A stretch of 64,000 nucleotides of DNA from an uncultured Solibacteraceae bacterium (GCA_964529305.1 CAZGUX010000128.1:17347-81346), one strand, 5' to 3'; numbered from the stretch's first letter, positions 9,989 to 35,864 are shown. Program-made: numbers and translations. Notes: a model not told the origin generated them from the letters alone.

Positions 9989-10380
9989 CCTGGCGATCCC
10001 GTGTGCCCGGGGCACGTCTTCACTCCGTACCGAAGCCGGGGATGCCCTTGAGCCCACGGCGTAAAGCCGTGGGGTTGCCGATACCCTTCACTACTGCCGA
10101 CGGCCCACACCATCAGAGGCCCGACCGCAAGAGGGCAAGCGCTCGCGCTCGATTTTCGCACACGTGAATTCAGCGACGGGTTGCGCCTGACTCGATCCAC
10201 GACCGGCACGGAGGGGGTGCCTGTTTCTGGACGTCCTCCCACCCACATCCCTTGTTTCTTTATCTGGGGCGCTTGCGGGCGCGGCAAGGCGAACTCGCAG
10301 CGGTGACTTCTCGGGAAAATACAGAAACGCATGGCCGTCCTTCGGTGTTCTTGGTTCGCAAGGCCTGCGTAAGCGCTCCC

Positions 10381-12939
10381 CTACGGCACGACCCTCACCA
10401 CGACGTATCCAACCTTGCTCAGCACTTGCGGGATGCGCTGCACCAGGAGCCGGTCTTTGTTCCTGGTTTCCTGGGAGAGTTCCTTCCAGGGACGCAGGTC
10501 CTTGTGTACCTTGCGCGTCTTATCGGTGTCTTTTGCCCATTCCCATCCCGTATCGAGTTTCAGCGCCATCCACCGTTGGTGTTCTAGTTCCGCGAGTTTG
10601 TCGGCTTCCCCAGGGGTCATTCGGGCTGCTGTCTCTCCTCCCCGGGCAGGGACCATCACGCACCCAATTGCGGCCAGTTTCCTCGACATATCTCGAACGT
10701 TGGCCCGATTCTGCTCCTTCTCGTGTTCGGGAAGTTGCGCGTAGGGTCTCAATGAGCTGTGCGTTCTGGCCTCTTCTCTCGTTTCCGCTCCCCACTGGTA
10801 ACCCTGAGCCTTCAGTTCCTCGCAAAAGACCTCGTGAACCGATTCCGCAAGCCGTTCGACGACCTCGGAAGTCAGTTCCAGTTGTTGGACGAGCGCCTGG
10901 AATTCGACAGGGTTGACGTGAATGCTCATTTGCGGAACGTGGGGAAGACAGGACCGTTCAAAGCGCCGTTTGCCGGCAAGGCTGCTCATGGCGATGATCG
11001 ATTCCATGGAGCGGACGCCGTGCCTGTACTCGCCGATTTGCAGCAATGCCCGAAGCACTCCGTCGTCGATCTGCAAGCCCTGACGGGCTTCGAACAGGTG
11101 GCCGGCGTCGCGGCGGAGGAGGGTGTGCAACAGAATGGCGCGGCGGATCGCCGAATACGGATCAGCGCCTGGCGCCTGAGGATTGGGGCCCATCACATTG
11201 ATGTATCCCTTGAGCCGGCTGACGAAGTCCGGCCCCTTGGCCTGTTGGAACAAGCGCGTTCTGTCGGCGTCGTCTGAATGGCAGAACTCGGCCATGGTCT
11301 TGCTGATTCCGCCGGCGAACACAAAGATCGAGCGGCCAATCGGGTGCGAGAGTTCGCCTTCCTGGAAAAGACCATCCTGCATCGGGGCCAGGAAGTGTCG
11401 CAGCCATTCCGGGCGATTGTCCCTGTCGATCATGTCGAATTCGTCCCAGAACACAAGCGGAAGCTTACCCGAGAGGCCGATGTCGCGCACGCGGTGGAAG
11501 GCATGCACCAAATCCTCGGGGGAGCGGAACAGTGTGAGGTTGAAGGTAATGTCTTGAATCTCTCCGGGCAGGAGAGCCTTGGCGAGCTCCTTCACGCCAA
11601 ATGACTTGCCGGAGCCAGGAGGGCCAAAGACAGCAATCGAGAGCGGGCGCGCCAGCTTTTGGCTCACGTACTCGGCGACCAAGGCCCGAATGCCGCGGTA
11701 GCTCTCGATCTCCTGGCGATCCACGGCGAGCAGTTTTCCAAACTGCCCCACCGGGATGTCGGCAAGAACGGCTTCCGGCCCTAGGCGTACGATCGTCTCG
11801 GCAATGGGACCGAGGCCGCCGGCATGACGGTCGTGCAGGATGGTCCACAACCTGGAATTGCCGGCGAAACCGGGTGCCGGGACAGATGAGCGAGCGAATC
11901 GATGAGCCGGCCGCTCGATTTCAGAGACGATCCGTGCGGTAGGAAAGCGAAGATCCGCGGCCGAGGCGTTGGTTCCGGGATGGCCGTAGCCCTCGAGATG
12001 CAGTGCGCGCATTGCGGACAGACCGGCCTGAACGGCAAGGGCCATGTCCGCGTTGGCCGGATCTCGCGCCAGTTCCCTGACGATGGCGGCCGTGAGGCAG
12101 GTAGAGTATCCGATCATGCCGCCCTGGTGCAGGGCGAGCCACATCCCCTCGACTTCCCTGGGGGCAAAGACCAGTTCGAACGCGGGCGCCGAACGATCCT
12201 CGCCCGGCTTCCTGGTACTCAGGAATGCGCCCGCGGCGGGGAACGAGGTCACTGTGAAGGCGCACGACGACAGGGCATTGAGCTGAGGATTGAAGGTCAT
12301 CTCCCAAGCCAAGTCCTGGGCGGTGCGCTCCCAGGAGATCTCGCGGCTAATATGAACATTGGTCAGGCGCAGATCGTTGGCGGCCACGACGACAATCAAA
12401 CGTTCGCGATACCGTTCGACCAGGTGGTCGAACAGCGGCCCGCGGGCGATGGGGGCGCTCATCTTGAGCACAATCCACCGCGGCGGCGCGCCTTCCCCGA
12501 GGGGCCACGAAGAAGGGTCGCTGCGAAATCCCAGGTCCGCATCGTCGAGGACCACGATGTCCGGGTTCCCAGCGGGGTCCAGCTTCGGAGCCACCCGTGT
12601 GCCCGGGCGCCTGCCGCCGACACCCAGGAATTCCTTCACCCGCCAGGCGGGCTTGACATCTTTCTTCTCTGCGGGGAACAACGACCACAACGCATACGAT
12701 TCGGGAAGAGCGTGATCGGTCAAAGACGTGGCAAGGTCCGGCACGGTGGGTTGGGTGACCTGGAGTTCCAACTGGCTGCCGGCGCCGGCAGCTTCGATCA
12801 GCGCGGCCGACAGCGCTGCACCTCCTAGCTGTGAGTACGCGCAAGAGCAGGCCCGGCCCCCCGACAGATCTCCGGAGGATTGCGCGATGTGGCAGTCCAC
12901 GGTCAGGTCGCCGGCGACGAGCACTCGGGTTGAGGCCAT
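10381..12939 (-). CDS. Large multidomain AAA+ ATPase with an N-terminal Rossmann-like domain and two tandem C-terminal RyR domains.
   Basis: 852 aa with Walker A (GPPGSGKS) and Walker B (LVFWDEFD). The N-terminal ~400 aa show weak ribokinase/PfkB-like features (VLVAGDLTVD, DIVVLDD, LIVVVAANDLR). The C-terminus has two RyR-like repeats (EVFCEELKAQGYQWG..RPYAQLPEHEKEQNR and QRWMALKLDTGWEWA..RPWKELSQETRNKDR). It is transcribed divergently from the SLOG-SLATT gene across a 56-bp gap. Confidence 0.6.
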   Translation of the reverse strand: MASTRVLVAGDLTVDCHIAQSSGDLSGGRACSCAYSQLGGAALSAALIEAAGAGSQLELQVTQPTVPDLATSLTDHALPESYALWSLFPAEKKDVKPAWRVKEFLGVGGRRPGTRVAPKLDPAGNPDIVVLDDADLGFRSDPSSWPLGEGAPPRWIVLKMSAPIARGPLFDHLVERYRERLIVVVAANDLRLTNVHISREISWERTAQDLAWEMTFNPQLNALSSCAFTVTSFPAAGAFLSTRKPGEDRSAPAFELVFAPREVEGMWLALHQGGMIGYSTCLTAAIVRELARDPANADMALAVQAGLSAMRALHLEGYGHPGTNASAADLRFPTARIVSEIERPAHRFARSSVPAPGFAGNSRLWTILHDRHAGGLGPIAETIVRLGPEAVLADIPVGQFGKLLAVDRQEIESYRGIRALVAEYVSQKLARPLSIAVFGPPGSGKSFGVKELAKALLPGEIQDITFNLTLFRSPEDLVHAFHRVRDIGLSGKLPLVFWDEFDMIDRDNRPEWLRHFLAPMQDGLFQEGELSHPIGRSIFVFAGGISKTMAEFCHSDDADRTRLFQQAKGPDFVSRLKGYINVMGPNPQAPGADPYSAIRRAILLHTLLRRDAGHLFEARQGLQIDDGVLRALLQIGEYRHGVRSMESIIAMSSLAGKRRFERSCLPHVPQMSIHVNPVEFQALVQQLELTSEVVERLAESVHEVFCEELKAQGYQWGAETREEARTHSSLRPYAQLPEHEKEQNRANVRDMSRKLAAIGCVMVPARGGETAARMTPGEADKLAELEHQRWMALKLDTGWEWAKDTDKTRKVHKDLRPWKELSQETRNKDRLLVQRIPQVLSKVGYVVVRVVP

Positions 12940-12995
12940 GTCTCGACTATAAGCGATTGCATCGGATCGAGACGCATGGATATGCTCTCGTTGGT

Positions 12996-14699
12996 ATGGC
13001 CAGCGTTGACGACAGACCGCGGTTGGCGTTCCGGGTGGGAGTGACGGGGAAACGGAACCTGACCGAGCTCGACATGGATGCGATCCGGCCTCGCATTCGT
13101 GAGCTTCTCGCCGTCGTCAAAGGCGCCATGGAGGGCGAGGCAGCACGGTCGCACGGGGTCTATTCGGACGAGCCTCCGCTGTTGCGGGCGGTTTCTCCCC
13201 TGGCCGAGGGCGCGGACAGGGTTTTCGCCGAAGAAGCCCTCGTGCTTGGGTACACGCTGGAGGCCCCGCTGCCGTTCCATAGGGTCGAATACGCCGAGGA
13301 TTTTTCTGATTCAGCCAGCCGCGCAGCATTCGACGGGTTGATCGCCCAAGCCGCCGGCGTATTTGAACTGGATGGCCGGCGGGAATCCGAATCGGAACCG
13401 TACGAGACCGTGGGACGGGTGGTGCTGGATCACTGTGATCTTCTGATGGTCGTCTGGGATGGCAAACCCGCCGGCGGGAAAGGGGGGACCGCCCAGATCC
13501 TGGAGATGGCGCGGCAAAGGCAGATTCCCGTCGTTTGTATCGGTATCGCAGGACTTGCGGACAGGTTTTACTGGGCGGGAATGGAAGACGATCGTATGAC
13601 CCTCTCCGCCGAGGCACTTCATTTGGCCGTCGCACGCCTGGTTCGCCCCCCCTGGCTGTCCGGAATCAATCCCGATGACGCCGACATGAGCGGGTCGTAT
13701 GTGGGATCCGCCAGCGGGAAACCAGCGGTTCTTGGCGTGATCTGGTCCTGGTTCGTGAAAGGGATGTTGGTGGGCGTAGAAGTGGAGCCCACCAGAAAAG
13801 AGCAGATTCCGGACAACGGCTTCACCCCCCCGTATAAACTTTTCGACTCCATCACCAACCGCTTCGCGGGACTCTATCGGGGAGCGTTCCTGGCGAATTA
13901 CAGCCTGGGACTGGCGGCCGTCTGGTTCGCTCTCCTCGGATATGCCCATGAAGGCTACGGAAAACTGTGGCTGTGGAGCGAACTGGCGGCAATTGCGATC
14001 ATCCTGCTGCTGATCTTTCTGCTGGGCCGAAGGCGGTGGCACTTTCGCAGCATCGATTGCCGCTATCTGACGGAGCATTACCGGATCCTGTGCTTCATTT
14101 ATCCTCTCGGGCTGACGGCGCCACCCTTGAGGCTTCCGGCGCACCATCTTCACAGCGACGTACAACGGAGCTGGATGGAATGGCGGCTGCGCGCAAGCTT
14201 GCGCCAGGAGCCGATGCCTGCCGGGACGGTGAATGCGGCCGAGGTCCAGGGCCACTGTGCGCGGATTGTGGGTGAATGGATTGACGGCCAGATTACGTAC
14301 CACCAGCGAAATGAGGTTGGCCTGGAGCGTATCGAGAAGCGGCTCGACGGGTTGGTGTGGTGTTGCGTCAGCGCCGCGGCCGTCGCCTGCGTGCTCCACT
14401 TCTTCGTGCATGACCCAGCGGTTGCGCCGTGGCTGACGCTATGTGCCGCCGGATTTCCGGCCGCGGCCGCGGCGTGCCACGCGATCGCCACGCAAGGCGA
14501 GTTCCGGCGGTTGTCGGAGCGGTCAGGGGCCATGCACAACAGCCTCCGTGGGATCAGGACTCGCATCCAGCAACTCAACAGCTCTGGACAATTGACACTT
14601 GCCACCCTAAGGCGTGAGTGCGAGACTCTGGCCGCGCTGATGATCGAAGAGGTGGTGGATTGGCAGATCCTGTACAGGAAGCCGGTACCGCCGGGATAG
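12996..14699 (+). CDS. SLOG (SMF/DprA-LOG-like nucleotide sensor) domain fused to two C-terminal SLATT (DUF4231-like 2TM) modules. It is a predicted ligand-gated membrane effector.
   Basis: The N-terminal Rossmann-like domain carries DprA/LOG-type motifs (RVGVTGKRNL, SPLAEGADRVFAEEALVLGYTLEAPLPF, LLMVVWDGKPAGGKGGTAQILEMARQRQIPVVCIG). The C-terminal half has two copies of a 2TM module (LANYSLGLAAVWFALLGYA/LWLWSELAAIAIILLLIFLLG, then VWCCVSAAAVACVLHFFV/WLTLCAAGFPAAAAACHAIA). Each copy has the flanking aromatic/amphipathic helices typical of SLATT. I chose ATG 12996 because the longer ORF from 12831 would overlap the divergent AAA+ gene. Confidence 0.7.
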   Translation: MASVDDRPRLAFRVGVTGKRNLTELDMDAIRPRIRELLAVVKGAMEGEAARSHGVYSDEPPLLRAVSPLAEGADRVFAEEALVLGYTLEAPLPFHRVEYAEDFSDSASRAAFDGLIAQAAGVFELDGRRESESEPYETVGRVVLDHCDLLMVVWDGKPAGGKGGTAQILEMARQRQIPVVCIGIAGLADRFYWAGMEDDRMTLSAEALHLAVARLVRPPWLSGINPDDADMSGSYVGSASGKPAVLGVIWSWFVKGMLVGVEVEPTRKEQIPDNGFTPPYKLFDSITNRFAGLYRGAFLANYSLGLAAVWFALLGYAHEGYGKLWLWSELAAIAIILLLIFLLGRRRWHFRSIDCRYLTEHYRILCFIYPLGLTAPPLRLPAHHLHSDVQRSWMEWRLRASLRQEPMPAGTVNAAEVQGHCARIVGEWIDGQITYHQRNEVGLERIEKRLDGLVWCCVSAAAVACVLHFFVHDPAVAPWLTLCAAGFPAAAAACHAIATQGEFRRLSERSGAMHNSLRGIRTRIQQLNSSGQLTLATLRRECETLAALMIEEVVDWQILYRKPVPPG

Positions 14700-14868
14700 C
14701 GACCGGGAACCGGGCTGGAGGTGCCCGGCAGTCCGGCACGTGCGAAGGGCAACCGCTCAATGGCCTGGTGTGCCGGTCGAATTGCCCGGCAAGTCGAGCG
14801 CATGATACGTTGGGCTTCCGGCAACGAGGCGATTCTCGCGGAGCGGACCTCTTGCGTCCGGGAATGCG

Positions 14869-16107
14869 GTGACTACAAAAGGTGGATCTGGCGGGTGGCT
14901 GAAGCAAGTCGCCCGAAGACTGAACTGGCACAAGGCCGAGCGGAAGTCTTGCGCGAAGTGTGGTTCAAGCAGCGACGCCGAAGCGCGCCTCTGCTCCGCT
15001 TGTGGAGCACGGTTCCCCCACCAGGATGCGCGCTACGACGGGTTCATCAGCTACCGGCGCGACGGCGGCAGTCACGTCGCCAGTCTGCTGCAGTTGCTGC
15101 TCGAACGCGACCATGAGAAGCGGTTTTATCTCGACGTGGAGGAGTTGCAGGTTGGCCGCTTCGATGAGCAGTTGCTCGAGCGGATCCAATCGACTTCCAA
15201 CTTTGTCCTTGTTCTCACGGCACGATGTCTGGATCGCTGTACCGAAAAGCACGATTGGCTGAAACGCGAGATCCTTCATGCGATCACGACAGGGCGCAAC
15301 ATCATTCCCGTTCTCGTAGAGGACTTCCGTTTCCCGGGCGATGAAGTATTCAAGGACTTGCCGGATTCGATGCGGCTCCTCCCGAATCTCCAGGGAGTCC
15401 CTTACACGCACATTTACCGAGATGCCGCGGTCCGCAAGATCACGCAGTACCTGAGGGACGTCGCTCCGTTCGATGCTCTCGGGTCTGACCCAACCGCTAC
15501 CGGGCGCACGACCGGGGGAGGCTCCCAATCCGGACCTCCGCTCGATAACACTCCTGTGACCGCCGCGACCGCCGGAGCGATGCCCGCCTCGGTTGGAGGG
15601 AGCGACCCATCGCCGCGCAAGACGCCGAATCCGACTATCCAAGGCCGGAACCCGGACACCGTGCCACCCGAGTTCCCTGTTGAGCAAAGAACAATAGCGT
15701 CTCCCGCTACTCGATCGTCTTCGATTGACGTGGAGGGGGTTCCCCCGCCCGCGGTACCGACGATGTTGACACCGGAAGCGGCGCGAGCCAGGGTCCGGGC
15801 GGATTCGTGGCTGCTGCAAGTTCAGTCTGATCTTGCGTCCATCGATCACTCGGAGCACGAACCGAGTCTTGGAGCCGCGCGCATCTCGGGCCTCCGTACC
15901 GTGTCTGATCACGATGCTTCAGGCGCCGAGCCGCGATTCGGGTACGCCACGATTGCCCGCTCGTCCGTGAAAGACATCGGCGGGGCCCCAGAGCCCCGGT
16001 TCGGATTCGCTTCAGTCCAGCGTCGAGATGCTTTACGCGTGGCCGAGACGCCCAATGATCCGAGGTTCGGTTCGCTCTGCGTTCACCTGCTCAGCGACCA
16101 GAAGTGA
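14869..16107 (+). CDS. Zinc-ribbon + TIR domain protein (predicted NAD+-consuming signal-generating enzyme) with a disordered C-terminal tail carrying (E/D)PRFG repeats.
   Basis: An N-terminal CxxC..CxxC ribbon (CAKCGSS..CSACGARF) is followed by a canonical TIR core (YDGFISYRRDGGSHVASLL..FYLDVEELQVGRFDEQL..NFVLVLTARCL..HDWLKREILHAI..NIIPVLVEDF). The conserved catalytic-Glu position is retained (WLKRE). The C-terminal ~200 aa are low-complexity with three EPRFG/DPRFG repeats. The start is a GTG. Confidence 0.8.
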   Translation: MTTKGGSGGWLKQVARRLNWHKAERKSCAKCGSSSDAEARLCSACGARFPHQDARYDGFISYRRDGGSHVASLLQLLLERDHEKRFYLDVEELQVGRFDEQLLERIQSTSNFVLVLTARCLDRCTEKHDWLKREILHAITTGRNIIPVLVEDFRFPGDEVFKDLPDSMRLLPNLQGVPYTHIYRDAAVRKITQYLRDVAPFDALGSDPTATGRTTGGGSQSGPPLDNTPVTAATAGAMPASVGGSDPSPRKTPNPTIQGRNPDTVPPEFPVEQRTIASPATRSSSIDVEGVPPPAVPTMLTPEAARARVRADSWLLQVQSDLASIDHSEHEPSLGAARISGLRTVSDHDASGAEPRFGYATIARSSVKDIGGAPEPRFGFASVQRRDALRVAETPNDPRFGSLCVHLLSDQK

Positions 16108-16111
16108 AACC

Positions 16112-17368
16112 ATGTTCAAGATCCAAACGATTCCATTCGAATGCCCGAAACGCAGCAAGGTCGGCTATGAGCTATCGATCGAGCTCATCGATTTTTCCGC
16201 GGACGCTCACGAGGTGTTCATCGTGGGACCTGATGGGCAGGGGGTCCCCCACCGGATCAGTGATGGTTGCGTGCGGATCGAGCACCGCGATGGGCCAGGT
16301 GTCGCGCGTTTTCAGGCGGTGGTCCGTAATAAGCCCGAGGTACTTGAAGAGGGGGGCGGTTCTCGCGTTCCGGTTCTGAAGCCCAGTGAAGCCAGAGACG
16401 TGCTCACGATTGAGGTTTTGGTGCTCCCTGAGACGGAACCATCTATCCGGGATGCCGTGGAGGCGATCGTTTCGTCAATGAGTATTGGTATCAAAGGTGG
16501 ATCGATGACCGTCACGGCTCCCGATCTCGGAGTGGAGGGATTCCGGCTTCAAAAATCCTTTGGGGAGGCGGCCCCGGCCGAAGTGCTTCGCAGGCTTGCG
16601 CTCGACCGGGGCGACGCAACCAGTGTCCTCCGTTGCCTGTATCTGCTGTTCGACCTGGCGGGCCGGTTCCCCCTTGTTCCGTGGCTGGCGCCGTCGATCT
16701 TCGCCGTCCTGGGTGATCTGGTCGGAAGCCTGTCCAGTTCCTTCATGTTGAAGCAAGTTCTGGATGCGTTCGAGCGCATCGCTTTGGCGCCGAAGGATCA
16801 GTGGCTTTATCTCATTCGAACACTTCAGGAGCAGCAACTCGAACGCAGTCGGACCATTGGACTGCTCCGGCGAGTGACGCCGAGGGAATACCGACTCCAG
16901 ACCGCCGCCATCGTTCTGGAAGTCTGCGGTGTAGTCGCGGACGGCAGAGGCGAAGCGTGTAATCTCTTCAACGACTTCTCGTATCGCCAAGCTGCCGAAG
17001 AGGTTCTGGAGTGGATGGAGGTGGACCGTTATGTGATTTCGGAGGGGTGCCAGTTTCTGCGAGCCATCGATTACCGAAGTGCACTACCCAGACTACGGAC
17101 CCTGTTGGACCAACCTGGGGACCGGCCAGGAGACGAGGAGATCGTCAAATGCCTAGCGTCCTGGCAGGACCACCCCTCGATCGCGATGATGGTGAAGAAG
17201 ATCGCCGAAACCTCCGATTACACGGCCGGCAGCATGGTGAAACATCTCCTGCGAATTGGCGCCGAAGTCATCCCCGCGATCCAAGAGGTTCAACGAAAGT
17301 CCGGACCTGCCAAGGCCAAGTCCATAGCAGACTCCCTCGCTTCGCATGCTCCATCGGCGAAAGCCTGA
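16112..17368 (+). CDS. Hypothetical protein with C-terminal HEAT/ARM-like repeats, third gene of the TIR cassette.
   Basis: Its ATG lies 5 nt after the TIR stop (translational coupling). The 419-aa product has no recognisable catalytic motifs. The C-terminal region has HEAT-like repeats (IVKCLASWQDHPSIAMMVKKIAETSD.., MVKHLLRIGAEVIPAIQEV). Confidence 0.55.
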   Translation: MFKIQTIPFECPKRSKVGYELSIELIDFSADAHEVFIVGPDGQGVPHRISDGCVRIEHRDGPGVARFQAVVRNKPEVLEEGGGSRVPVLKPSEARDVLTIEVLVLPETEPSIRDAVEAIVSSMSIGIKGGSMTVTAPDLGVEGFRLQKSFGEAAPAEVLRRLALDRGDATSVLRCLYLLFDLAGRFPLVPWLAPSIFAVLGDLVGSLSSSFMLKQVLDAFERIALAPKDQWLYLIRTLQEQQLERSRTIGLLRRVTPREYRLQTAAIVLEVCGVVADGRGEACNLFNDFSYRQAAEEVLEWMEVDRYVISEGCQFLRAIDYRSALPRLRTLLDQPGDRPGDEEIVKCLASWQDHPSIAMMVKKIAETSDYTAGSMVKHLLRIGAEVIPAIQEVQRKSGPAKAKSIADSLASHAPSAKA

Positions 17369-17980
17369 AGCACCTGTGCCTGTTGTCATCGCACCCGTCC
17401 AAAGGTGAACCCAGACGGAGAAGAATTTAGCCTCGAACCGCGGGACCAGGCTGCCAGGCGGAAGGCCTGGAGCCACAAACGCCACCTGTTAAATCCGCAG
17501 CTACGGCTAGATTGGCTCGAGCTTCGCTCACGTCGCCCGGTCAGCTTCTGCTGGATCACAAACGTCGCGTCTGGGTTCACTTCAAGTGTTTGGTGCGCGA
17601 AGCTCGAGTAGCAGTGGAATCACAAGCATGTCGCTCCCTTTCCTCGGTCACTCCGCCCTTCCCCTTGGCCCCTCAACCTAGTCCGCCGCAACGTGCGACA
17701 CTGATTCCCAGCAAACTCACCGTGCCCGCTCCCAACAACCATCAGCGTGCGTTCCGGTGAGTGGCCCTCTGCGTCGACACCCGTGAATGGGTGGAATTTA
17801 CGCCCAATTTCAGTCCAGCGAACACGATAAACCGGATTGGTTCTCGGGCTGAACGACGATCAACCCTCGACCGGAAACCTGGTCGTCGCACTGAGTCTCG
17901 CATGGAGACCTCCTGTTTTTCCCTCCCGCTCAGCCGGGCATCGAATCGTTCGGGCCGCCGGTGGCCGGCCATTTCCCACG

Positions 17981-19999
17981 TCACCGAACGGTCAGCCAGA
18001 CCGGCGATGACCAGGCCATCGCGATCCGCTCCCGAACCAGCGCGCGCTGCCGCAACCGGGCATAGTAGATCACGCTCCCTTTTGGCGCGCGGTCCGTGAA
18101 CCGGATCCGGACCTGCTCGCGTGCCGGCCTCTCCCGGTGAACGACCTCCCAACCCGGCCGCCCCCGTACGTGGCGGAGAACCTCGGCTTCGTCCACGATG
18201 TCGGTACCCATCGCCGTGAACTCGATCGGAACCTCGCCGCCGGATTCTTTCTGACTCCCCATCGCAGCGCCGCCTGCCCGGAAATCCAGCACGATGCGAG
18301 CGCCGGTGGTCCCATACGTCCGGCGCGCGTGGAGCGCATCGAAGATCGCCTCTCTCGTGAGCGATCGCGCCCGGACGGCCGCCAGCCCATAGTGGGGCTG
18401 CCCTGGGTGGGCCCGATGATCGTCGCTCGCCGCGATCGTGCTCAACATCAGCCCGCGCTCCCAAGCGCCCTGCGCCGACATTCCCGTCTTCGAGGTCTCG
18501 CTGGCGTTGGTGAACAGGCTTTGCTCGAACGCCAGGGGATGGCTTGGGTCGTTGGCCTCGCTCAATCCGTGCGCCGAGTAGATCTCGAAGTTCCGGCGCA
18601 AGGCGGCATCGTCAGCGCGGGACCAGTCGATGACGGCGGGCATCTTCATCGTGTGGTGAGGAATGGTCAGGGCCTCGCCTGCCCGGAGGGCCTTCCACAA
18701 GTCCGGAAGCGTCGCGCTTCCGGCGATCAGCCGTCCCGGTTGCCCGCGGAAATAGACGTTGTGATGCCCGTACGGCGAACCGAAGGAAGCTTCGTACGCG
18801 TGCAGGGTGACAAATTCCTCGGGAGCGTAGTGCCGCTCGGCGGTTGCCGTGTACTGCGGCCACTCGCGCGCGGTCAAGCCGCGCATCAGTTCCGTTGGGG
18901 CAACGCTGTGGTCGGTCATCGCGTAAAAGTCGAGACCGGAGATGCGGCGGGCGTACCCGTGGGCGCTGTCGGCTTCACCCACCGCATCCTGGACGCTGTA
19001 GCGGGTGTGGGAGTGGAGGTCGCCCCAGTACAGGCGCTCGGCGGGCGCGGTGGCCGTGACCACGATGGGATTGCTGACCCCCCGCAGGGCGCGCGAGGCT
19101 TCGGCCGCTTCGATGCGGACGATTCCGGGCTGTGTGGGCGTGAACGATGCCTCGGCCCATCCCCTGCCCGCCTCGAACCGCGCGGACCCGGCGATGCCGG
19201 CCTGTCCCTGCGCCACCCGAAGACCGATCTCCCCCGCGAGGCGGGTGGCCGGATTGCCGAACTCGTCGACCGCGGCAATGTGGAGTGGGACCGCTTCTCC
19301 CACCACGCCTTCCGACCGCGCCGTCACCAGCATCTCGACGGCCGGGGCCGCTTCCGTCCGCAGCACCGGCGTCCGGCTGTGCAGGCGGAACGTGTTCCTG
19401 CCTTCGGTGTCCAGGGCGAAAATCAAAGCGCGTGGGGGACCCGCCGTGATTCCCAGGCGAAAGCCCGGACTGCCTCCCGATCGGTCGCCATAGATCAACG
19501 TCAGCGTGTCCCCTTCGCGAAGGTCGCCGTCCTCGACGACTACACGGGTCACGAACGTGAAGTACCCGGTCCAGCGGTTCAGGTTGCTGCGCCGGTCTCC
19601 CTTCACGAGCGAGGTGGCCGGCTCCTGTTCCACGACCGTCCGGGGACGAACCTCCGGCCGTGAGCACCGGGCCGAGACATACAGCCCGTCGCGCGGGTCG
19701 CTGGCCTGCATGCGAAATCCCGAGTTCCGGATGCCGGCATGCCAGTAGTCGGGCAACTGCACCCGCACCCCGCCGCCCCGGCGGATGCCTCCGGCGCCAA
19801 TGCGATAGTTCAGGGTCCAGGTTCCCCATTCGCCGGCCACCCCGGAATCAGGCGTCATCGTGACCTCTCCAAGACTCGTGGGCTCCGCGAGAACCACCGT
19901 TCCGGAAAGGTCGTCTCCCCGTTGCTGTGCCACCAATACGGCCAGAAGGAGGCAGAAGGCGGCAATGAGGGGAAAGCGGCGTTTGGACACTCGGTGCAT
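17981..19999 (-). CDS. Secreted DUF3604-family protein (PHP/CehA-like metal-dependent phosphoesterase fold).
   Basis: 672 aa with a signal peptide. It has a YWGDLHSHT.. PHP-like metal-binding motif, plus HAYEASFG..HHNVYF and DDHRAHPG motifs typical of DUF3604. Confidence 0.65.
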   Translation of the reverse strand: MHRVSKRRFPLIAAFCLLLAVLVAQQRGDDLSGTVVLAEPTSLGEVTMTPDSGVAGEWGTWTLNYRIGAGGIRRGGGVRVQLPDYWHAGIRNSGFRMQASDPRDGLYVSARCSRPEVRPRTVVEQEPATSLVKGDRRSNLNRWTGYFTFVTRVVVEDGDLREGDTLTLIYGDRSGGSPGFRLGITAGPPRALIFALDTEGRNTFRLHSRTPVLRTEAAPAVEMLVTARSEGVVGEAVPLHIAAVDEFGNPATRLAGEIGLRVAQGQAGIAGSARFEAGRGWAEASFTPTQPGIVRIEAAEASRALRGVSNPIVVTATAPAERLYWGDLHSHTRYSVQDAVGEADSAHGYARRISGLDFYAMTDHSVAPTELMRGLTAREWPQYTATAERHYAPEEFVTLHAYEASFGSPYGHHNVYFRGQPGRLIAGSATLPDLWKALRAGEALTIPHHTMKMPAVIDWSRADDAALRRNFEIYSAHGLSEANDPSHPLAFEQSLFTNASETSKTGMSAQGAWERGLMLSTIAASDDHRAHPGQPHYGLAAVRARSLTREAIFDALHARRTYGTTGARIVLDFRAGGAAMGSQKESGGEVPIEFTAMGTDIVDEAEVLRHVRGRPGWEVVHRERPAREQVRIRFTDRAPKGSVIYYARLRQRALVRERIAMAWSSPVWLTVR

Positions 20000-32815: not shown

Positions 32816-32887
32816 TGCGGATAGCGGGAGTCGAACCCGCGGCCGACAGCTTTGAGGCTGTTGCTCTATCCACTGAGCTATATCCAG
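32816..32887 (-). tRNA. Atypical tRNA with canonical D- and T-arms but a 6-nt anticodon loop (CUCAAA). It resembles tRNA-Trp(CCA) missing one C, and may be a pseudo-tRNA or a sequencing indel.
   Basis: Reverse complement reads CTGGATA-TA-GCTC-AGTGGATA-GAGC-A-ACAGC-CTCAAA-GCTGT-CGGCC-GCGGG-TTCGACT-CCCGC-TATCCGC-A. The D-arm and T-arm (GGTTCGACTCC) are textbook and the acceptor stem pairs except 1:72. The anticodon loop has 6 nt, not 7, and CCA is not encoded. Coordinates are good to ±2 nt. Confidence 0.55.
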
Positions 32888-33143
32888 GTTGGCGCAGAGG
32901 GATCCAACGTTCGCCGGCACGCGGTACTCCAGCGGAGCCGCGCCAGCGAGGTGGTTTGAACCTCGACTATAGGCGAACATCGGTCATTACCTCCAGCTTG
33001 ATGAGTATAAACCACAGTATCGTGGTGGTCAATAGAAAACTTGGAGAAAACTTGGAGATTTCTGGCAACCGGGCCGGACAATCGTTCGATGCGCCGACGG
33101 CATCATGTTCTAGTAGATTAGAGTCTAAGGACTCAAAACTCTC

Positions 33144-34013
33144 ATGGCATTCTGCACCAACTGCGGTACGCAAATTGGGGAACAGTCTCGATTCTGCCCA
33201 GGTTGTGGCGCGCCTGGCGGCGGCGTGGCAAACGTATCGACCTCAATCGCCCAATCGCTTTCCGCCGAACCTCTCGACTACTCGGTCGAGGGCGACAACC
33301 TCCAAGTGATCCGAATCCGCCTCAAACCCGGTCAGGAGATCTTCGCCGAGGCCGGCAAGATGGTCTACAAGACGGCCAATGTCCAGTGGGAGACCCGGAT
33401 GACCGGAGCCAGCATTGGGCAAAAGCTGTGGGGAGCGCTCAAGCGATCGTTCACTGGTGAGTCGCTGTTTCTGACGTATTTCAAGGCGGCGACGCCGGGC
33501 GAAGTAGGCTTCGCGGGCGATTATCCCGGCAGGGTCCAGGTTTTTGACTTGGCCCCAGGGCAAACCATTTTCGCTCAGCGAGATGCGTTTGTCGTGGCGC
33601 AGAACACGGTTCAACTCAGCGTGGCGCTCGTCAAGAAGTTAGGTGCGGGATTTTTCGGCGGTGAGGGATTTGTCCTCGAAAAACTCACCGGCCCAGGCGC
33701 GGCATTCATCCACGGAGGCGGCGACTTTCTCACCTTCGACCTGAAAAGTGGGGAGGTACTCCAGGTCGACACTGGGTGTATCGTGGCCTTTGATGAAACC
33801 GTGAGCTACGACATCCAGTTTGTGGGCGGAATCAAGACGGCGATCTTTGGCGGCGAAGGTTTGTTCCTGGCGACCATGACGGGACCGGGCCGGGTTATCG
33901 TCCAGAGCATGACGCTCGAAAAGCTTCGACGGGAGTTGTCGGTTGGGCGCTCCGGCGGGGACGAGCGGAGTGGCCTCCAGGCGCTCGGAGGGCTGCTGGG
34001 AAGCGAAGATTAA
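33144..34013 (+). CDS. Zinc-ribbon protein fused to an AIM24/TIGR00266-family (DUF124) domain.
   Basis: N-terminal CTNCG..CPGCG zinc ribbon. The remainder matches the AIM24-family pattern (repeated G-rich beta strands: GESLFLTYF.., GFFGGEGFVLEKLTGPG.., IFGGEGLFLATMTGPGRVIVQS). Confidence 0.6.
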   Translation: MAFCTNCGTQIGEQSRFCPGCGAPGGGVANVSTSIAQSLSAEPLDYSVEGDNLQVIRIRLKPGQEIFAEAGKMVYKTANVQWETRMTGASIGQKLWGALKRSFTGESLFLTYFKAATPGEVGFAGDYPGRVQVFDLAPGQTIFAQRDAFVVAQNTVQLSVALVKKLGAGFFGGEGFVLEKLTGPGAAFIHGGGDFLTFDLKSGEVLQVDTGCIVAFDETVSYDIQFVGGIKTAIFGGEGLFLATMTGPGRVIVQSMTLEKLRRELSVGRSGGDERSGLQALGGLLGSED

Positions 34014-34143
34014 GCAAACAAAGGACAAAGAGACCAAGTGACGCCACGCTTTTAGGGAACCAGTCGGCGGCGGGGTACGTCCGTGTAAGGCGCAGCCTTG
34101 ACGCTATTGAAATAAGGGCCCTACAATTAGTAGTGTCCAGAAA

Positions 34144-35835
34144 GTGCCGGCTATGACCACCCTACGGTTTTGGATTCCGTGCCTGACGTTTAGCCTCCTG
34201 CCGCTTGCCTACCCCGTTCTTGGACAGAAGCAGAACAAGTCGTCCGAGGCCGCGCCTCCTCGCGAGACCGTAGCCCGGCCGATGTCCGAGAAGGAACGGC
34301 GGAAGCGCGAGGAGAAACTACGCAAGGAGTTGGAGACCCCGTTCCGCAAATGGCTGAACGAGGATGTCACCTACATCATTACGGATGAGGAACGCCAGGC
34401 GTGGAAGCGGCTGGCGACCGATGAAGAGCGCGAGCAGTTCATCGAACAGTTCTGGCTGCGCCGCGACCCGACCCCGGACTCGGTCGAGAACGAGTACAAA
34501 GAGGAGCATTACCGCCGCATCGCGTACGCCAACGAGCGGTACGCTTCGGGCATTCCCGGGTGGAAAGCGGATCGCGGCCGGATCTACATCACGTTCGGCC
34601 CGCCCGACGAGATTGAGTCGCATCCTTCGGGCGGAACCTACGAGCGTCCGTTTGAAGAAGGCGGCGGTACCACGTCCACCTTCCCGTTCGAGAAGTGGCG
34701 CTACCGGTGGATCGAAGGAATCGGATCGGACATCAACATCGAGTTCGTCGACCCGACGATGACCGGCGAATACCGGATGACGATGGACCCATCGGAGAAG
34801 GATGCCCTGCTGATGGTTCCCAACGCCGGCCTCACCCTGTCGGAGCAGATGGGCCTGTCCTCGAAAACCGACCGCTTCACCCGCACCGATGGCACCCGGT
34901 TGGGGAATCCGATCGGCGGCCAGCCAATGCGCATGAACCAGTTCGAGCGGCTACAGCAGTTCGCGTTGCTGCAGAAACCACCCCAGGTGAAGTTCAAGGA
35001 CCTCGAAGCGCAGGTCAACTCCACGATCAAGTTCAATATTCTGCCCGTTCAGGTGCGCGCCGACTTCTTCCCGGTGACCGAGTCGTCGGTCTTGACGAAC
35101 GTTACGATTCAGTTGGAAAACAAAGACCTGCAATTCCAGTCGAAGGAAGGGGTCCAAAAGGCGGTTGTCAACATGTACGCCCGGGTCAGTTCGATGGCCC
35201 GGAGAGTGGTGACGTATTTCGAGGATACGGTGACGGTGGATGCACCGGAATCGATGCTGGCCCAGGTCAGCAAGAAGCAGTCGATTTACCAGAAATCCAT
35301 TCCGCTCGCCCCGGGAACCTACCGCCTCAATGTCGTGGTAAAGGACTTGGTCGGCGGCAACATGAACAACTACGAGTTGGCGTTGCACGTGCCTCGAATC
35401 GATCCCGACAAGTTGATGGGCAGTTCGGTGGTGCTGGCCGACCTGATCGAAAAGGTTCCGACGCGCAGCATCGGGACCGGACAGTTCGTGATCGGAACCA
35501 CCAAGGTCCGGCCGCGGGTGACCGAGTCGTTCAACCAGAACGAGAAGATGGGCATCTATTACAAGGTCTACAACCTGATGCCGGACGAGAAGACCAAGAA
35601 GCCGAACGGCAGCATCGAATACGAAGTGATGCGCAACGGCTCGAACGAGAAGATCTTCGAGTTTACCGAAGAGATTGCCTCGATCCCGAATGTCTCGACG
35701 CAGCAGGTGACAGTGGAGAAGTTGCTGCCGCTCGCCTCGTTGCAGCCGGGCCAGTACACATTGAAGATGAAGGTGACCGACCGGGTGTCGAACCAGACCT
35801 TGACTCCCTCGGCCATGTTTACGGTGAAGCCTTAA
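34144..35835 (+). CDS. Secreted GWxTD-domain protein.
   Basis: Signal peptide, charged coiled region, and the family-defining motif GWKADRGRIYITFGPPDE (GWxTD). This domain family is, as far as I recall, characteristic of Acidobacteriota. Confidence 0.7.
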   Translation: MPAMTTLRFWIPCLTFSLLPLAYPVLGQKQNKSSEAAPPRETVARPMSEKERRKREEKLRKELETPFRKWLNEDVTYIITDEERQAWKRLATDEEREQFIEQFWLRRDPTPDSVENEYKEEHYRRIAYANERYASGIPGWKADRGRIYITFGPPDEIESHPSGGTYERPFEEGGGTTSTFPFEKWRYRWIEGIGSDINIEFVDPTMTGEYRMTMDPSEKDALLMVPNAGLTLSEQMGLSSKTDRFTRTDGTRLGNPIGGQPMRMNQFERLQQFALLQKPPQVKFKDLEAQVNSTIKFNILPVQVRADFFPVTESSVLTNVTIQLENKDLQFQSKEGVQKAVVNMYARVSSMARRVVTYFEDTVTVDAPESMLAQVSKKQSIYQKSIPLAPGTYRLNVVVKDLVGGNMNNYELALHVPRIDPDKLMGSSVVLADLIEKVPTRSIGTGQFVIGTTKVRPRVTESFNQNEKMGIYYKVYNLMPDEKTKKPNGSIEYEVMRNGSNEKIFEFTEEIASIPNVSTQQVTVEKLLPLASLQPGQYTLKMKVTDRVSNQTLTPSAMFTVKP

Positions 35836-35864
35836 GCTATAGTGGAGTAGTCGAAGATCCGGTC

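Follow-up and report, generated by a model that had tools for sequence, protein, structure and literature searches.

The locus described here raises the question whether neighbouring genes for a SLOG protein with transmembrane helices and for a TIR protein form a Thoeris-like signalling system, and how many genes such a system would comprise. It lies in a stretch of 64,000 nucleotides from an uncultured Solibacteraceae bacterium (GCA_964529305.1 CAZGUX010000128.1:17347-81346), which was analysed at its full length and is called the window. All three plus-strand open reading frames of the preliminary description were found in an ORF scan of the window: gene 1 (12996..14699), gene 2 (14869..16107) and gene 3 (16112..17368), and their products of 567, 412 and 418 aa agree with the recorded gene calls of the 107,809-bp NCBI contig. 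Only the start of gene 3 required revision, since it is most likely the ATG at 16112 rather than 16028. The motifs quoted earlier (SPLAEGADRV, DGKPAGGKGGTAQILEMA and WLKRE) are all present in the translations. Genes 1 and 2 are separated by 169 nt, and the ATG of gene 3 stands 4 nt past the stop codon of gene 2 (TGA, 16105-16107); this tight spacing is compatible with the translational coupling claimed for the pair, although the two frames do not overlap.

The proposed three-gene unit proved to be too small, since it had missed the divergently oriented gene 4 (10381..12939, minus strand), whose 852-aa product consists of a ribokinase-like domain, an AAA+ ATPase and two RyR domains. We regard this gene as part of the cassette, which makes the unit one of four genes. 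The 56 bp between genes 4 and 1 (12940..12995) presumably serve as a shared regulatory region with a putative promoter; a sigma-70 scan of this region gave no match above chance. The accessory-island genes that had been thought to surround the cassette were not recovered: the flanking genes are ordinary housekeeping ones (GH42-like, NIPSNAP, PQQ propeller, DUF3604, DegP, MFS transporter), and no defence island was seen around the locus. The GC3 of the four cassette genes is 0.66-0.74 versus 0.77-0.84 in the adjacent flanking genes of at least 98 aa, with the exception of one 133-aa ORF at 0.69.

Gene 1 encodes a SLOG sensor fused to four transmembrane helices. Its N-terminal domain (12996..13595, plus strand, residues 1-200) carries the loops GVTGKR (from 13038), SPLAEGADR (from 13194) and WDGKPAGGKGGTA (from 13452). 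Profile searches with the window protein gave no direct match to any SLOG model, but the domain is SLOG by fold, being Rossmannoid with Gly-rich loops and having YpsA as its nearest structural neighbour, which places it in the YpsA-like clade; the earlier SLOG assignment is upheld in this structural sense. The four hydrophobic helices were recognised by hydropathy and make up two hairpins of two helices each. Hairpin 1 (13809..14120, plus strand, residues 272-375, hydropathy peaks at 296-315 and 321-348) is of the DUF4231/SLATT_3 type and hairpin 2 (14268..14690, plus strand, residues 425-565, peaks at 449-474 and 476-498) of the SLATT_1 type; no similarity was detectable between the two, and the solved structures compared with gene 1 contained no SLATT match. 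On the window protein itself every SLATT model of Pfam and NCBIfam remained below threshold (NCBIfam SLATT_1 at residues 428-544, 21.3 bits, cut-off 41; Pfam SLATT, 11.4 bits, cut-off 26.3), whereas DUF4231 matched 19 and SLATT_1 12 of 29 relatives at E 0.1 or better. Gathering scores were exceeded in family members by DUF4231/SLATT_3 on hairpin 1 and by SLATT_1 on hairpin 2, as in the homolog P0098 (residues 253-327, DUF4231, 31.7 bits, cut-off 24.7; residues 392-511, SLATT_1, 31.7 bits, cut-off 26.3). Judged by these profile matches the hairpins are SLATT-type at family level, and to that extent the assignment of two SLATT modules stands. Gene 1, with its 105 homologs, belongs to a family scattered over many phyla. 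By its predicted domains it would join a module known for binding TIR products to a toxic one, which is the general design of a Thoeris effector.

The gene 2 product consists of a zinc ribbon, a TIR domain, a Pro-rich linker and a tail with three PRFG repeats, all on the plus strand. The ribbon (14941..15015; CxxC at residues 28 and 42) is weak, since Pfam Zn_ribbon_3 matched at E 6e-4, below the cut-off. The TIR domain (15031..15465, residues 55-199) was matched by Pfam TIR_2 with 30.5 bits at a cut-off of 28 and has Glu134 in the catalytic position (codon 15268-15270), in agreement with the intact catalytic Glu reported before; with these two features gene 2 would qualify as a Thoeris TIR in the general sense. 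The same column holds Glu in 84 of 87 domains, counting 86 TIR neighbours of gene 1 homologs and gene 2. The PRFG repeats of the tail (15916..16104; residues 355, 376 and 398) also end the TIR gene upstream of a gene 3 homolog in two other loci, L164 (E 3e-7) and L165, and we propose the tail as a docking site for gene 3.

Gene 3 can be described as the partner of this type of TIR, with a beta-rich N-terminus and a helical C-terminus. No family model matched the window protein, HEAT included; HEAT_2 was found in two of five relatives at E 9e-5 and 4e-3, below the cut-off and over the C-terminal ~60 residues only, so that the earlier label HEAT-repeat protein is reduced to a possibly HEAT-like helical C-terminus. 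Homologs of gene 3 are few: the indexed search gave 2, and a set of 1.84 billion representatives yielded 27. The gene 2-gene 3 pair recurs in L164, with the gene 3 homolog 15 nt downstream of the TIR gene and the pair directly after a RelA_SpoT-SLOG-RyR protein. A SLOG-containing protein is thus found directly upstream of the pair in both of the two loci with a readable upstream gene, and its effector domain differs between the window locus and L164. Both the gene 2-specific TIR family and the family of gene 3 are rare; the usual partners of the SLOG-SLATT effector are different ones.

The domains of gene 4 are encoded on the minus strand in the order PfkB/ribokinase fold (11740..12939, residues 1-400), AAA+ P-loop ATPase (10900..11739, residues ~400-680) and two RyR repeats. 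The N-terminal domain shares 8-17% sequence identity with PfkB/ribokinase kinases and was not matched by Pfam PfkB; it has conserved GDxxxD and GG motifs, while the canonical DTxGAGD motif is unrecognisable, its counterpart being, by sequence reasoning only, G273-G-M-I-G277-Y. This domain might serve in ligand binding without catalysis. The ATPase, with weak Pfam AAA, AAA_22 and Rad17 matches, has a Walker A motif GPPGSGKS (11602-11625) and a Walker B motif WDEFD (11434-11448), and shares 41-61% identity with its homologs in the loci. Pfam RyR (RyR / Repeat12 domain, PF02026) matched gene 4 in two stretches with 92.3 bits (E 2.3e-26, cut-off 27.4). Both repeats were aligned to the phage protein DyoEdafos gp78 (RyDEP), whose residues H75/W78/H100/D117 correspond to H702/F705/H727/N744 in repeat 1 (10645..10878, residues ~688-765) and to H787/W790/H812/D829 in repeat 2 (10384..10644, residues 766-852). 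Repeat 2 has kept all four residues, including the catalytic dyad, and their spacing of 3, 22 and 17 is identical to that in RyDEP. By these alignments the RyR domains of gene 4 probably bind or cut a TIR-type ADPR signal and would form a second ADPR-signal-binding module.

The gene 4 family has at least 2377 proteins, the best 120 of which are full length with 46-51% identity (one 43%). It is a recurrent partner of the gene 1 SLOG family: gene 4 homologs adjoin SLOG-SLATT genes in 10 distinct loci, and four of six loci in a blind sample of the gene 4 family contain a standalone SLOG protein with 35-38% identity to the SLOG domain of gene 1. SLOG-RyR fusions also occur (P0103, P0105, L164).

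TIR and SLOG-SLATT genes are conserved neighbours across phyla and strongly co-located, as is general for Thoeris. A TIR gene was nearby in 76 of 155 SLOG-SLATT loci, about half, and within 4 kb in 39 of the 73 loci whose flanks extend 4 kb or more on each side. Among ORFs of at least 150 aa, the TIR share was 43/292 (14.7%) within 1 kb of the SLOG-SLATT gene and fell in successive bins to 21/187, 14/299 and 5/266, then to 0/194 (0%) past 7.5 kb. The architectures of the partner TIRs vary, with fusions to TPR, WD40, NB-ARC, CHASE2, SIR2_2 and DUF4189, and the same gene order as in the window, SLOG-SLATT followed by TIR and a repeat protein, is found on pSBC2-4, a Caballeronia plasmid. STAND, WD40 or TPR modules are attached to many of the partner TIRs, and a TIR in such a fusion is commonly taken for an NADase effector and not for a signal maker. 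In about a quarter of the well-flanked loci (19/73) TIR, DUF4062 and RyR genes are all missing nearby, and in L170 a pair of gene 4 and SLOG genes stands among housekeeping genes without any TIR; since such pairs exist, SLOG and gene 4 may respond to a non-TIR product. Related loci repeatedly contain NUDIX and RelA_SpoT genes. TrkA_N-RyR membrane proteins are frequent partners.

We consider it somewhat probable that the four genes form a horizontally acquired, Thoeris-like abortive-infection system. This reading is based on the SLOG fold of gene 1, the family-level SLATT/DUF4231 assignment, the TIR_2 match with Glu134 and the RyR match (E 2e-26). The linkage of TIR and gene 4 genes to the SLOG family, the SLOG sensor of type I and the cADPR-triggered SLATT effectors of type VII Thoeris, and the lower GC3 of the four genes speak for it as well. 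Since TIR genes lie near half of the 155 loci, become rarer with distance and have kept the Glu in 84 of 87 domains, the Thoeris-like logic has survived the computational refutation tests laid down in the preliminary description, which concerned the SLOG fold, the SLATT character of the helices, the co-location and the catalytic Glu. The route from TIR signal through SLOG to a membrane effector, which that description had put forward, appears to be the best reading of the predicted domains and of their co-location, within a larger unit than was assumed and with TIR and gene 3 families that are not the usual partners. Gene 3 would restrain or target the gene 2 TIR, probably by docking on the PRFG-repeat tail. 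Upon infection the TIR would become active and convert NAD+ to a signal derived from ADP-ribose, probably one of the cADPR isomers. This signal would be bound by gene 1 through its YpsA-like SLOG domain. Binding would make the two SLATT-type hairpins oligomerise or open, the inner membrane would be depolarised or permeabilised, and the cell would stop before phage release. The RyR repeats of gene 4 could act as a second receptor for the same ligand class; our preferred role for gene 4 is that of a threshold-setting or terminating regulator that would sponge or hydrolyse the signal like the phage RyDEP, and a role as ATP-driven co-effector or as activator of the SLOG protein seems less likely. 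Counted against the four-gene reading were the lack of defence by 'SLOG and 4TM' operons in E. coli, the TIR-less loci, the sub-threshold SLATT scores, the unmatched Thoeris models, the lack of a defence island and the TIRs fused to STAND, WD40 or TPR.

Part of the same evidence could be explained by two independent modules that are neighbours by chance. Genes 4 and 1 would then be a self-contained sensor-effector pair with a ligand of its own, and genes 2 and 3 a separate module in which the TIR depletes NAD+ as an abortive-infection effector while gene 3 serves it as sensor or antitoxin. Pairs of gene 4 and SLOG genes without TIR (L170, L172), the gene 2-gene 3 pair without SLATT in L164 and the 169 nt between genes 1 and 2 are in line with such a separation, as are the many partner TIRs with their own WD40, TPR or STAND sensors and the TIR NADase effectors known from CBASS, Pycsar, pAgo and Avs. 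We nevertheless judge it unlikely, since the TIR enrichment around SLOG-SLATT genes decays with distance in many phyla and with many TIR architectures, the pair in L164 again stands directly behind a SLOG and RyR protein, and SLOG and RyR are both documented as binders of TIR products.

The tight and conserved pairing of gene 4 with SLOG can also be read as a sign that gene 4 makes or modifies the ligand: its ribokinase-like domain would phosphorylate a metabolite with a ribose moiety, for example ADPR, a nucleoside or a cADPR isomer, SLOG would be an enzyme or a product sensor, and the TIR merely the supplier of substrate. SLOG clades are described as comprising both enzymes and sensors (PMC9503650), and the recurrent NUDIX and RelA_SpoT genes would fit as well. 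This reading is quite improbable, as it would need a kinase in which the anion-hole and catalytic-base motif DTxGAGD can, by sequence reasoning, not be recognised, and no experimental precedent for it is known. Furthermore, no conserved acidic residue follows the SLOG GGT loop in the family consensus, and we take this loop to be without the LOG-type catalytic Glu of the PGGxGTxxE motif. The least probable of the readings is that of a non-immune module for physiological NAD/ADPR-linked signalling or membrane conductance, for example in stress or dormancy of soil bacteria. It would suit the housekeeping nature of the flanks, among which no defence gene was seen, the gene 4-family genes often found amid metabolic genes (L170, L171), the frequent TrkA_N-RyR membrane partners and the role of B. 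subtilis YpsA in cell division and oxidative stress (PMC6459960). It is at odds with the GC3 shift that sets the four genes apart as an island, with the patchy distribution of the gene 1 family over phyla and its plasmid-borne homologs, with the IS that disrupts the region downstream of one homolog, and with the TIR, DUF4062, STAND, WD40 and TPR partners, which are hallmarks of conflict systems (PMC7159879).

The idea of a TIR signal that acts on a SLOG-SLATT protein is not new, having been predicted by Aravind's group. The nucleotide-centric conflict-system predictions of that group reportedly have their source in Burroughs et al. of 2015, as cited by later papers. In the later work SLATT is predicted to be a pore-forming effector regulated by ADPR derivatives (PMC9503650), and YpsA-clade SLOG is linked to NAD/ADPR sensing and TIR-SLATT neighbourhoods are noted (PMC9503650, PMC7159879, PMC6459960). 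'SLOG and 4TM' effectors are listed as candidate Thoeris by Yirmiya et al. (2025; 10.64898/2025.12.03.692087, Tables S1, S2), whose account places a TIR beside a SLOG protein with four transmembrane helices, identical in architecture to gene 1 by annotation, and likewise reads TIR signalling into it. Two such operons, one cloned from Streptomyces sp. GKU 895 and the other from Ca. Nitrospira nitrosa, failed to protect E. coli (10.64898/2025.12.03.692087, Table S2), and these are the only tests reported for this configuration. The architecture, which the preliminary description did not know to be experimentally validated, had already been predicted and listed. The published effectors (IMG 2691454910, 2862473379) were likened to gene 1 by architecture only, and their TIRs are weakly related to those of the present loci (26-28% identity over longer alignments).

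As for the established types, type I Thoeris combines ThsB with the SIR2-SLOG protein ThsA, whose SLOG domain is a 3'cADPR sensor. The PADLOC and NCBIfam Thoeris models did not match gene 1, gene 2 reached E 1.7e-3 with ThsB1 and 17.6 bits with ThcB4 (cut-off 220), and types I-III as modelled there were rejected, as genes 1 and 2 miss the ThsA, ThsB and ThcB thresholds; recognition by PADLOC, suggested earlier as a check, did not follow. A CBASS system with a SLATT effector was also rejected, no CD-NTase/SMODS cyclase being present in the four genes and the six flanking genes scanned. The experimentally validated type VII Thoeris consists of ThsB and the SLATT effector ThsH, activated by canonical cADPR; by the family-level SLATT assignment of gene 1, the window locus would likewise pair a TIR with a SLATT-type membrane effector. 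In ThsH, compared here by description, the ligand pockets are modelled between SLATT protomers, whereas gene 1 adds an N-terminal SLOG domain and has two different SLATT-type hairpins.

What is new here is the conserved fourth gene with RyR domains. RyR domains are not mentioned in the accessible text of PMC9503650 and PMC7159879, no description of a ribokinase-like/AAA/RyR partner was found in that of PMC9503650, PMC7159879 and PMC6459960, and neither this nor a gene 3-type partner was seen in the available portion of Yirmiya et al. (2025). RyR-domain proteins of phages are known to bind or cleave 2'cADPR, 3'cADPR and cADPR, and the four RyDEP residues are responsible for binding and cleavage of cADPR isomers (PMC13232231; 10.64898/2026.06.04.730250). 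RyDEP (PMC13232231) and RyR Tad (10.64898/2026.06.04.730250) belong, like gene 4, to PF02026; they are small counter-defence proteins encoded by phages. Gene 4, by contrast, encodes a large protein of the host, in which the two RyR repeats in tandem are joined to AAA+ ATPase and ribokinase-like domains, and it shows linkage to TIR and SLOG genes of the host.

The three forward-strand open reading frames of the preliminary description exist and every motif quoted there was found in their translations: gene 1 (12996-14699), gene 2 (14869-16107) and gene 3 (16112-17368) encode products of 567, 412 and 418 aa, which are also gene calls on an NCBI contig of 107,809 bp. A further gene that was absent from that description, gene 4 (10381-12939 on the reverse strand, 852 aa), encodes a P-loop ATPase together with two RyR domains (E 2e-26). 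Genes 4 and 1 start divergently, 56 bp apart (12940-12995), gene 2 follows gene 1 after 169 nt, and the best start of gene 3 is the ATG at 16112, 4 nt past the TGA of gene 2, and not 16028; a gene 3 homolog (P0107) starts at the residue equivalent to ATG 16112. In 10000-18200 no sigma-70-like promoter was detected, and the promoter and terminator scan gave nothing above shuffled expectation, so the operon boundaries are drawn from spacing only; this result fits a non-canonical promoter type in the host, which, judging from the closest homologs, is presumably Acidobacteriota-like.

Other accessory-island genes had been thought to surround the cassette. A Pfam scan instead recognised housekeeping genes in the flanks (a GH42-like hydrolase, NIPSNAP, a PQQ propeller, DUF3604, DegP and an MFS sugar transporter). 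GC3 is 0.66-0.74 in genes 1-4 and 0.77-0.84 in the adjacent flanking genes of at least 98 aa (0.69 in one 133-aa ORF), and the four genes are a small island amid housekeeping genes, outside any visible defence island. Gene 3 and the convergent DUF3604 gene are separated by about 610 bp (17369-17980), in which the sole ORF encodes 82 aa and has a low GC3 (0.58); none of the features examined there was conserved. Elsewhere in the window, a tRNA (32816-32887, reverse strand; Rfam 55 bits), to which ARAGORN assigns a 2-base 'anticodon' corresponding to a 6-nt anticodon loop CUCAAA, adjoins 3 kb of DNA in which GC goes down to 0.57-0.60 (33000-36000) and which may be an integrated element.

The reading of gene 1 as a SLOG domain fused to two SLATT-type 2TM modules holds at the level of the family, whereas the window protein itself matched no SLOG model in the family libraries and stayed below threshold for SLATT_1. 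We found 105 homologs of gene 1; RVGVTGHR, SPLAEGADR and WDGxxxxGxGGTA stand out as conserved motifs in an alignment of 29 of its homologs, and Pfam recognised DUF4231 in 19, SLATT_1 in 12, SLATT_3 in 4 and YpsA in 2 of the 29 family members. In one homolog (P0098) hairpin 1 matched DUF4231 and hairpin 2 SLATT_1, each above the gathering score. Hydropathy gave four TM-like helices arranged as two hairpins. The AlphaFold model of gene 1 is confident (pLDDT 90.2), and its membrane part found no specific match among solved structures. The idea that the hairpins are internal duplicates was rejected, as they have no detectable mutual similarity (hhalign probability 0.3).

For the gene neighbourhood, 160 related SLOG-SLATT loci were collected from species-representative genomes and metagenomes, spanning Acidobacteriota, Alphaproteobacteria, Planctomycetota, Verrucomicrobiota, Gemmatimonadota and others; their ORFs were called and clustered, and cluster representatives were checked against Pfam. 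A tblastn search against 163 related loci returned a single match for the gene 2 TIR domain (at L024, which marks the gene 2 family as atypical among TIR partners) and none for gene 3. That these sparse matches refute co-conservation was rejected, since a TIR HMM run iteratively over the called ORFs shows divergent TIR partners. With this model, seeded from neighbours, a TIR protein was found in 76 of 155 loci. Of the 73 loci that extend 4 kb or more to each side, 39 had a TIR within 4 kb, 10 the TIR-like DUF4062, 15 an RyR domain and 54 one or more of these. The linkage has an internal control in its decay with distance: of the ORFs of at least 150 aa, TIRs made up 43/292 within 1 kb, then 21/187, 14/299 and 5/266 at increasing distances, and 0/194 past 7.5 kb. 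Outside the TIR domain the partners are diverse (TPR, WD40, NB-ARC-WD40, CHASE2, SIR2_2, DUF4189, cyclase-STAND). A lack of neighbourhood conservation and a mutated catalytic Glu in orthologs had been named as marks against the proposed system; the neighbourhood is conserved by these counts, and the Glu is present in 84 of 87 TIR domains.

Several related loci have features of their own. On the mobilizable plasmid pSBC2-4 of the cultured strain Caballeronia sp. SBC2 (L173; NZ_CP049320.1, 7061-14461) the annotated genes come in the order DUF4231 protein, which is the SLOG-SLATT homolog, then TIR protein, then WD40 protein. At L001 (11703-13055), the SLOG-SLATT homolog (55% identical) is followed by no more than a zinc-ribbon stub of 95 aa and then a DDE transposase; a zinc-ribbon TIR gene was probably destroyed here by an IS insertion. 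In 15 Acidobacteriaceae-type loci (L011-L014, L016-L019, L022, L029, L102, L104, L109, L110 and L153) a TrkA_N membrane protein of about 680 aa is encoded 4-32 nt 3' of the SLOG-SLATT gene, with an RyR domain in those proteins where one was detected; it has the look of a second partner, RyR-bearing and channel-like.

Gene 2 had been described as a zinc-ribbon TIR protein with an intact catalytic Glu. TIR_2 matched above threshold and the residue is present as Glu134; the ribbon itself is weak, with CxxC at residues 28 and 42. The TIR domain is followed by a Pro-rich linker and by a tail in which a PRFG repeat occurs three times (residues 355, 376 and 398). Gene 3 matched no family model, and its relatives are few: two in an indexed search and, in a search of 1.84 billion representatives, 27, of which about 17 are full length. 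The HEAT-repeat label given to it is plausible only for the C-terminal part, near which sub-threshold HEAT_2 matches were seen in 2 of 5 relatives tested. At L164, a related locus, the gene 3 homolog lies 15 nt after a 405-aa TIR gene whose product also ends in PRFG/PTFG repeats, like the gene 2 tail (E 3e-7), and on the short contig L165 PRF(G)-type repeats stand immediately 5' of the gene 3 homolog. Since its homologs are preceded in this way by a repeat-tailed TIR gene or by repeats, genes 2 and 3 are, as judged from sequence, a conserved pair, in which the PRFG tail is inferred to dock on gene 3. In the literature searched, no TIR system was found to be described with a member of the gene 3 family.

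The N-domain of gene 4 had no Pfam match and no sequence match in the PDB, and was identified as ribokinase-like via structure prediction. Its GDxxxD and GG motifs are invariant and no DTxGAGD motif was recognised in it; the domain may be a ligand-binding and not a catalytic module. The gene 4 family is large: 2377 proteins or more reach E ≤1e-5, and the best 120 are full length with 46-51% identity (one 43%). In 10 distinct loci a homolog of gene 4 adjoins a gene 1 homolog, and each of these loci also has TIR, DUF4062-STAND or RelA_SpoT-RyR genes. In a blind sample of six gene 4-family loci, picked solely for the length of their contigs, four contained a standalone SLOG of 179-211 aa (HMM E 1e-39 to 1e-50), directly 3' of the gene 4 homolog in three of the four; TIR-WD40 genes were present in two of the six and DUF4062-NACHT with WD40 in a third. 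Standalone SLOGs, all 35-38% identical to that of gene 1, were located at L166 (10684-11319), L170 (10767-11321), L172 (10680-11255), L107 (4204-4785) and L167 (2120-2659, just 5' of a TIR-WD40 gene), most of the five directly 3' of gene 4-family genes. The YpsA-like SLOG partner of the gene 4-type core takes standalone, SLATT-fused and RelA/SpoT-fused forms, and direct SLOG-RyR fusions occur in two proteins (P0103 and P0105) and as RelA_SpoT-LSDAT_prok-RyR in L164. Fusions of RelA_SpoT (alarmone-synthetase-like) with RyR, with NUDIX genes near, are found at L164 (5266-7824), where the SLOG (LSDAT_prok) is added, and at L002/L004 (6365-8899), and hint that this signalling logic has another type of effector as well.

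According to two 2026 preprints, RyR-domain proteins of phages bind or cleave cADPR isomers and so defeat Thoeris (PMC13232231; 10.64898/2026.06.04.730250). The catalytic dyad of RyDEP is H75 and D117, with W78 and H100 as ligand contacts (PMC13232231), and RyR Tad is a nanomolar sponge of 3'cADPR, 2'cADPR and cADPR (10.64898/2026.06.04.730250). When the gene 4 repeats were aligned with RyDEP (DyoEdafos gp78, MN234187.1), repeat 2 had H787/W790/H812/D829 with spacing identical to H75/W78/H100/D117, and repeat 1 had H702/F705/H727/N744 at the corresponding positions; H/W/H/D is likewise kept in the RyR domain of the SLOG-RyR protein at L164. Because both ligand and catalytic residues are kept in repeat 2, gene 4 is predicted to bind an ADPR-derived ligand, very probably so, and it may also hydrolyse it.

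The reading to which we incline, with a confidence slightly above even, is a Thoeris-like logic in which a TIR signal acts through SLOG on a SLATT membrane effector and gene 4 gates the signal. Infection would switch on the TIR protein; gene 3 would be the sensor or regulator here, a role that at other loci would fall to fused WD40 or TPR arrays; the TIR would produce a cADPR-type signal, whose binding by SLOG would make the SLATT hairpins permeabilise the membrane; and gene 4 would buffer, degrade or otherwise gate the signal, or might be an ATP-driven co-effector. The main rival, two independent modules made up of genes 4 and 1 on the one hand and of genes 2 and 3 on the other, draws on L170, where gene 4 and SLOG are paired without TIR, and on the 19 of the 73 well-flanked loci that have no TIR, DUF4062 or RyR partner; we regard it as rather unlikely beside the distance-dependent linkage of TIR genes. 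CBASS was rejected, as the Pfam scan of genes 1-4 and six flanking genes contained no cyclase gene. Hailong-type systems pair a SLATT channel with a nucleotidyltransferase, and no nucleotidyltransferase family was present in the Pfam scans of the same genes, so that a channel of this type was rejected as well.

Going beyond the Thoeris-like logic, we tentatively suggest, at less than even confidence, that host RyR proteins are built into bacterial TIR/SLOG signalling, that RyR could be the cell's own cADPR-type receptor or glycosidase, setting the threshold or ending the signal, and that a two-gene core of a gene 4-type ATPase and a YpsA-like SLOG could team with diverse TIR sensors. Neither this widespread core (ribokinase-like/AAA+/tandem-RyR ATPase with YpsA-like SLOG) nor host ribokinase-like/AAA/RyR proteins in TIR systems were described in the literature searched. 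Should the RyR domains of hosts prove to sense TIR signals or to turn them over, they would add a new regulatory layer to bacterial TIR immunity, explain the origin of the phage counter-defence RyR proteins, and offer a tractable bacterial model for direct cADPR-type action on RyR Repeat12 domains, an action proposed for animal RyRs in both preprints (PMC13232231; 10.64898/2026.06.04.730250).

As to known systems, the curated Thoeris models of PADLOC and NCBIfam do not recognise the window proteins, and the locus is therefore not filed under types I-III. In Yirmiya et al., the SLOG of type I Thoeris is a 3'cADPR sensor, in type VII canonical cADPR triggers a SLATT effector that is paired with a TIR, and "SLOG and 4TM" appears among 29 putative Thoeris types, two operons of which were cloned in E. 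coli with the defence entry "No" (10.64898/2025.12.03.692087). Aravind's group predicted SLATT as a pore regulated by ADPR derivatives and tied YpsA-clade SLOG to NAD/ADPR sensing (PMC9503650, PMC6459960, PMC7159879). The architecture of SLOG-SLATT with TIR is hence already recognised and unvalidated, in agreement with the earlier caveat that no experimental validation was known. The TIR domains of the published '4TM SLOG' systems match those of the related loci only weakly; a Streptomyces plasmid match considered as a link to these systems proved to be a standalone SLOG and was uninformative. SLOG fused to SLATT pores is a predicted Thoeris effector type whose sole reported test was heterologous and gave no defence, and the window locus with its about 160 relatives makes of it a defined family with conserved residues and a cultured source, the Caballeronia plasmid. 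By analogy, the logic of the window locus would be that of Thoeris. RyDEP and RyR Tad are phage-encoded counter-defence proteins, whereas gene 4 is a host-encoded RyR protein beside TIR and SLOG genes, in a pairing that recurs.
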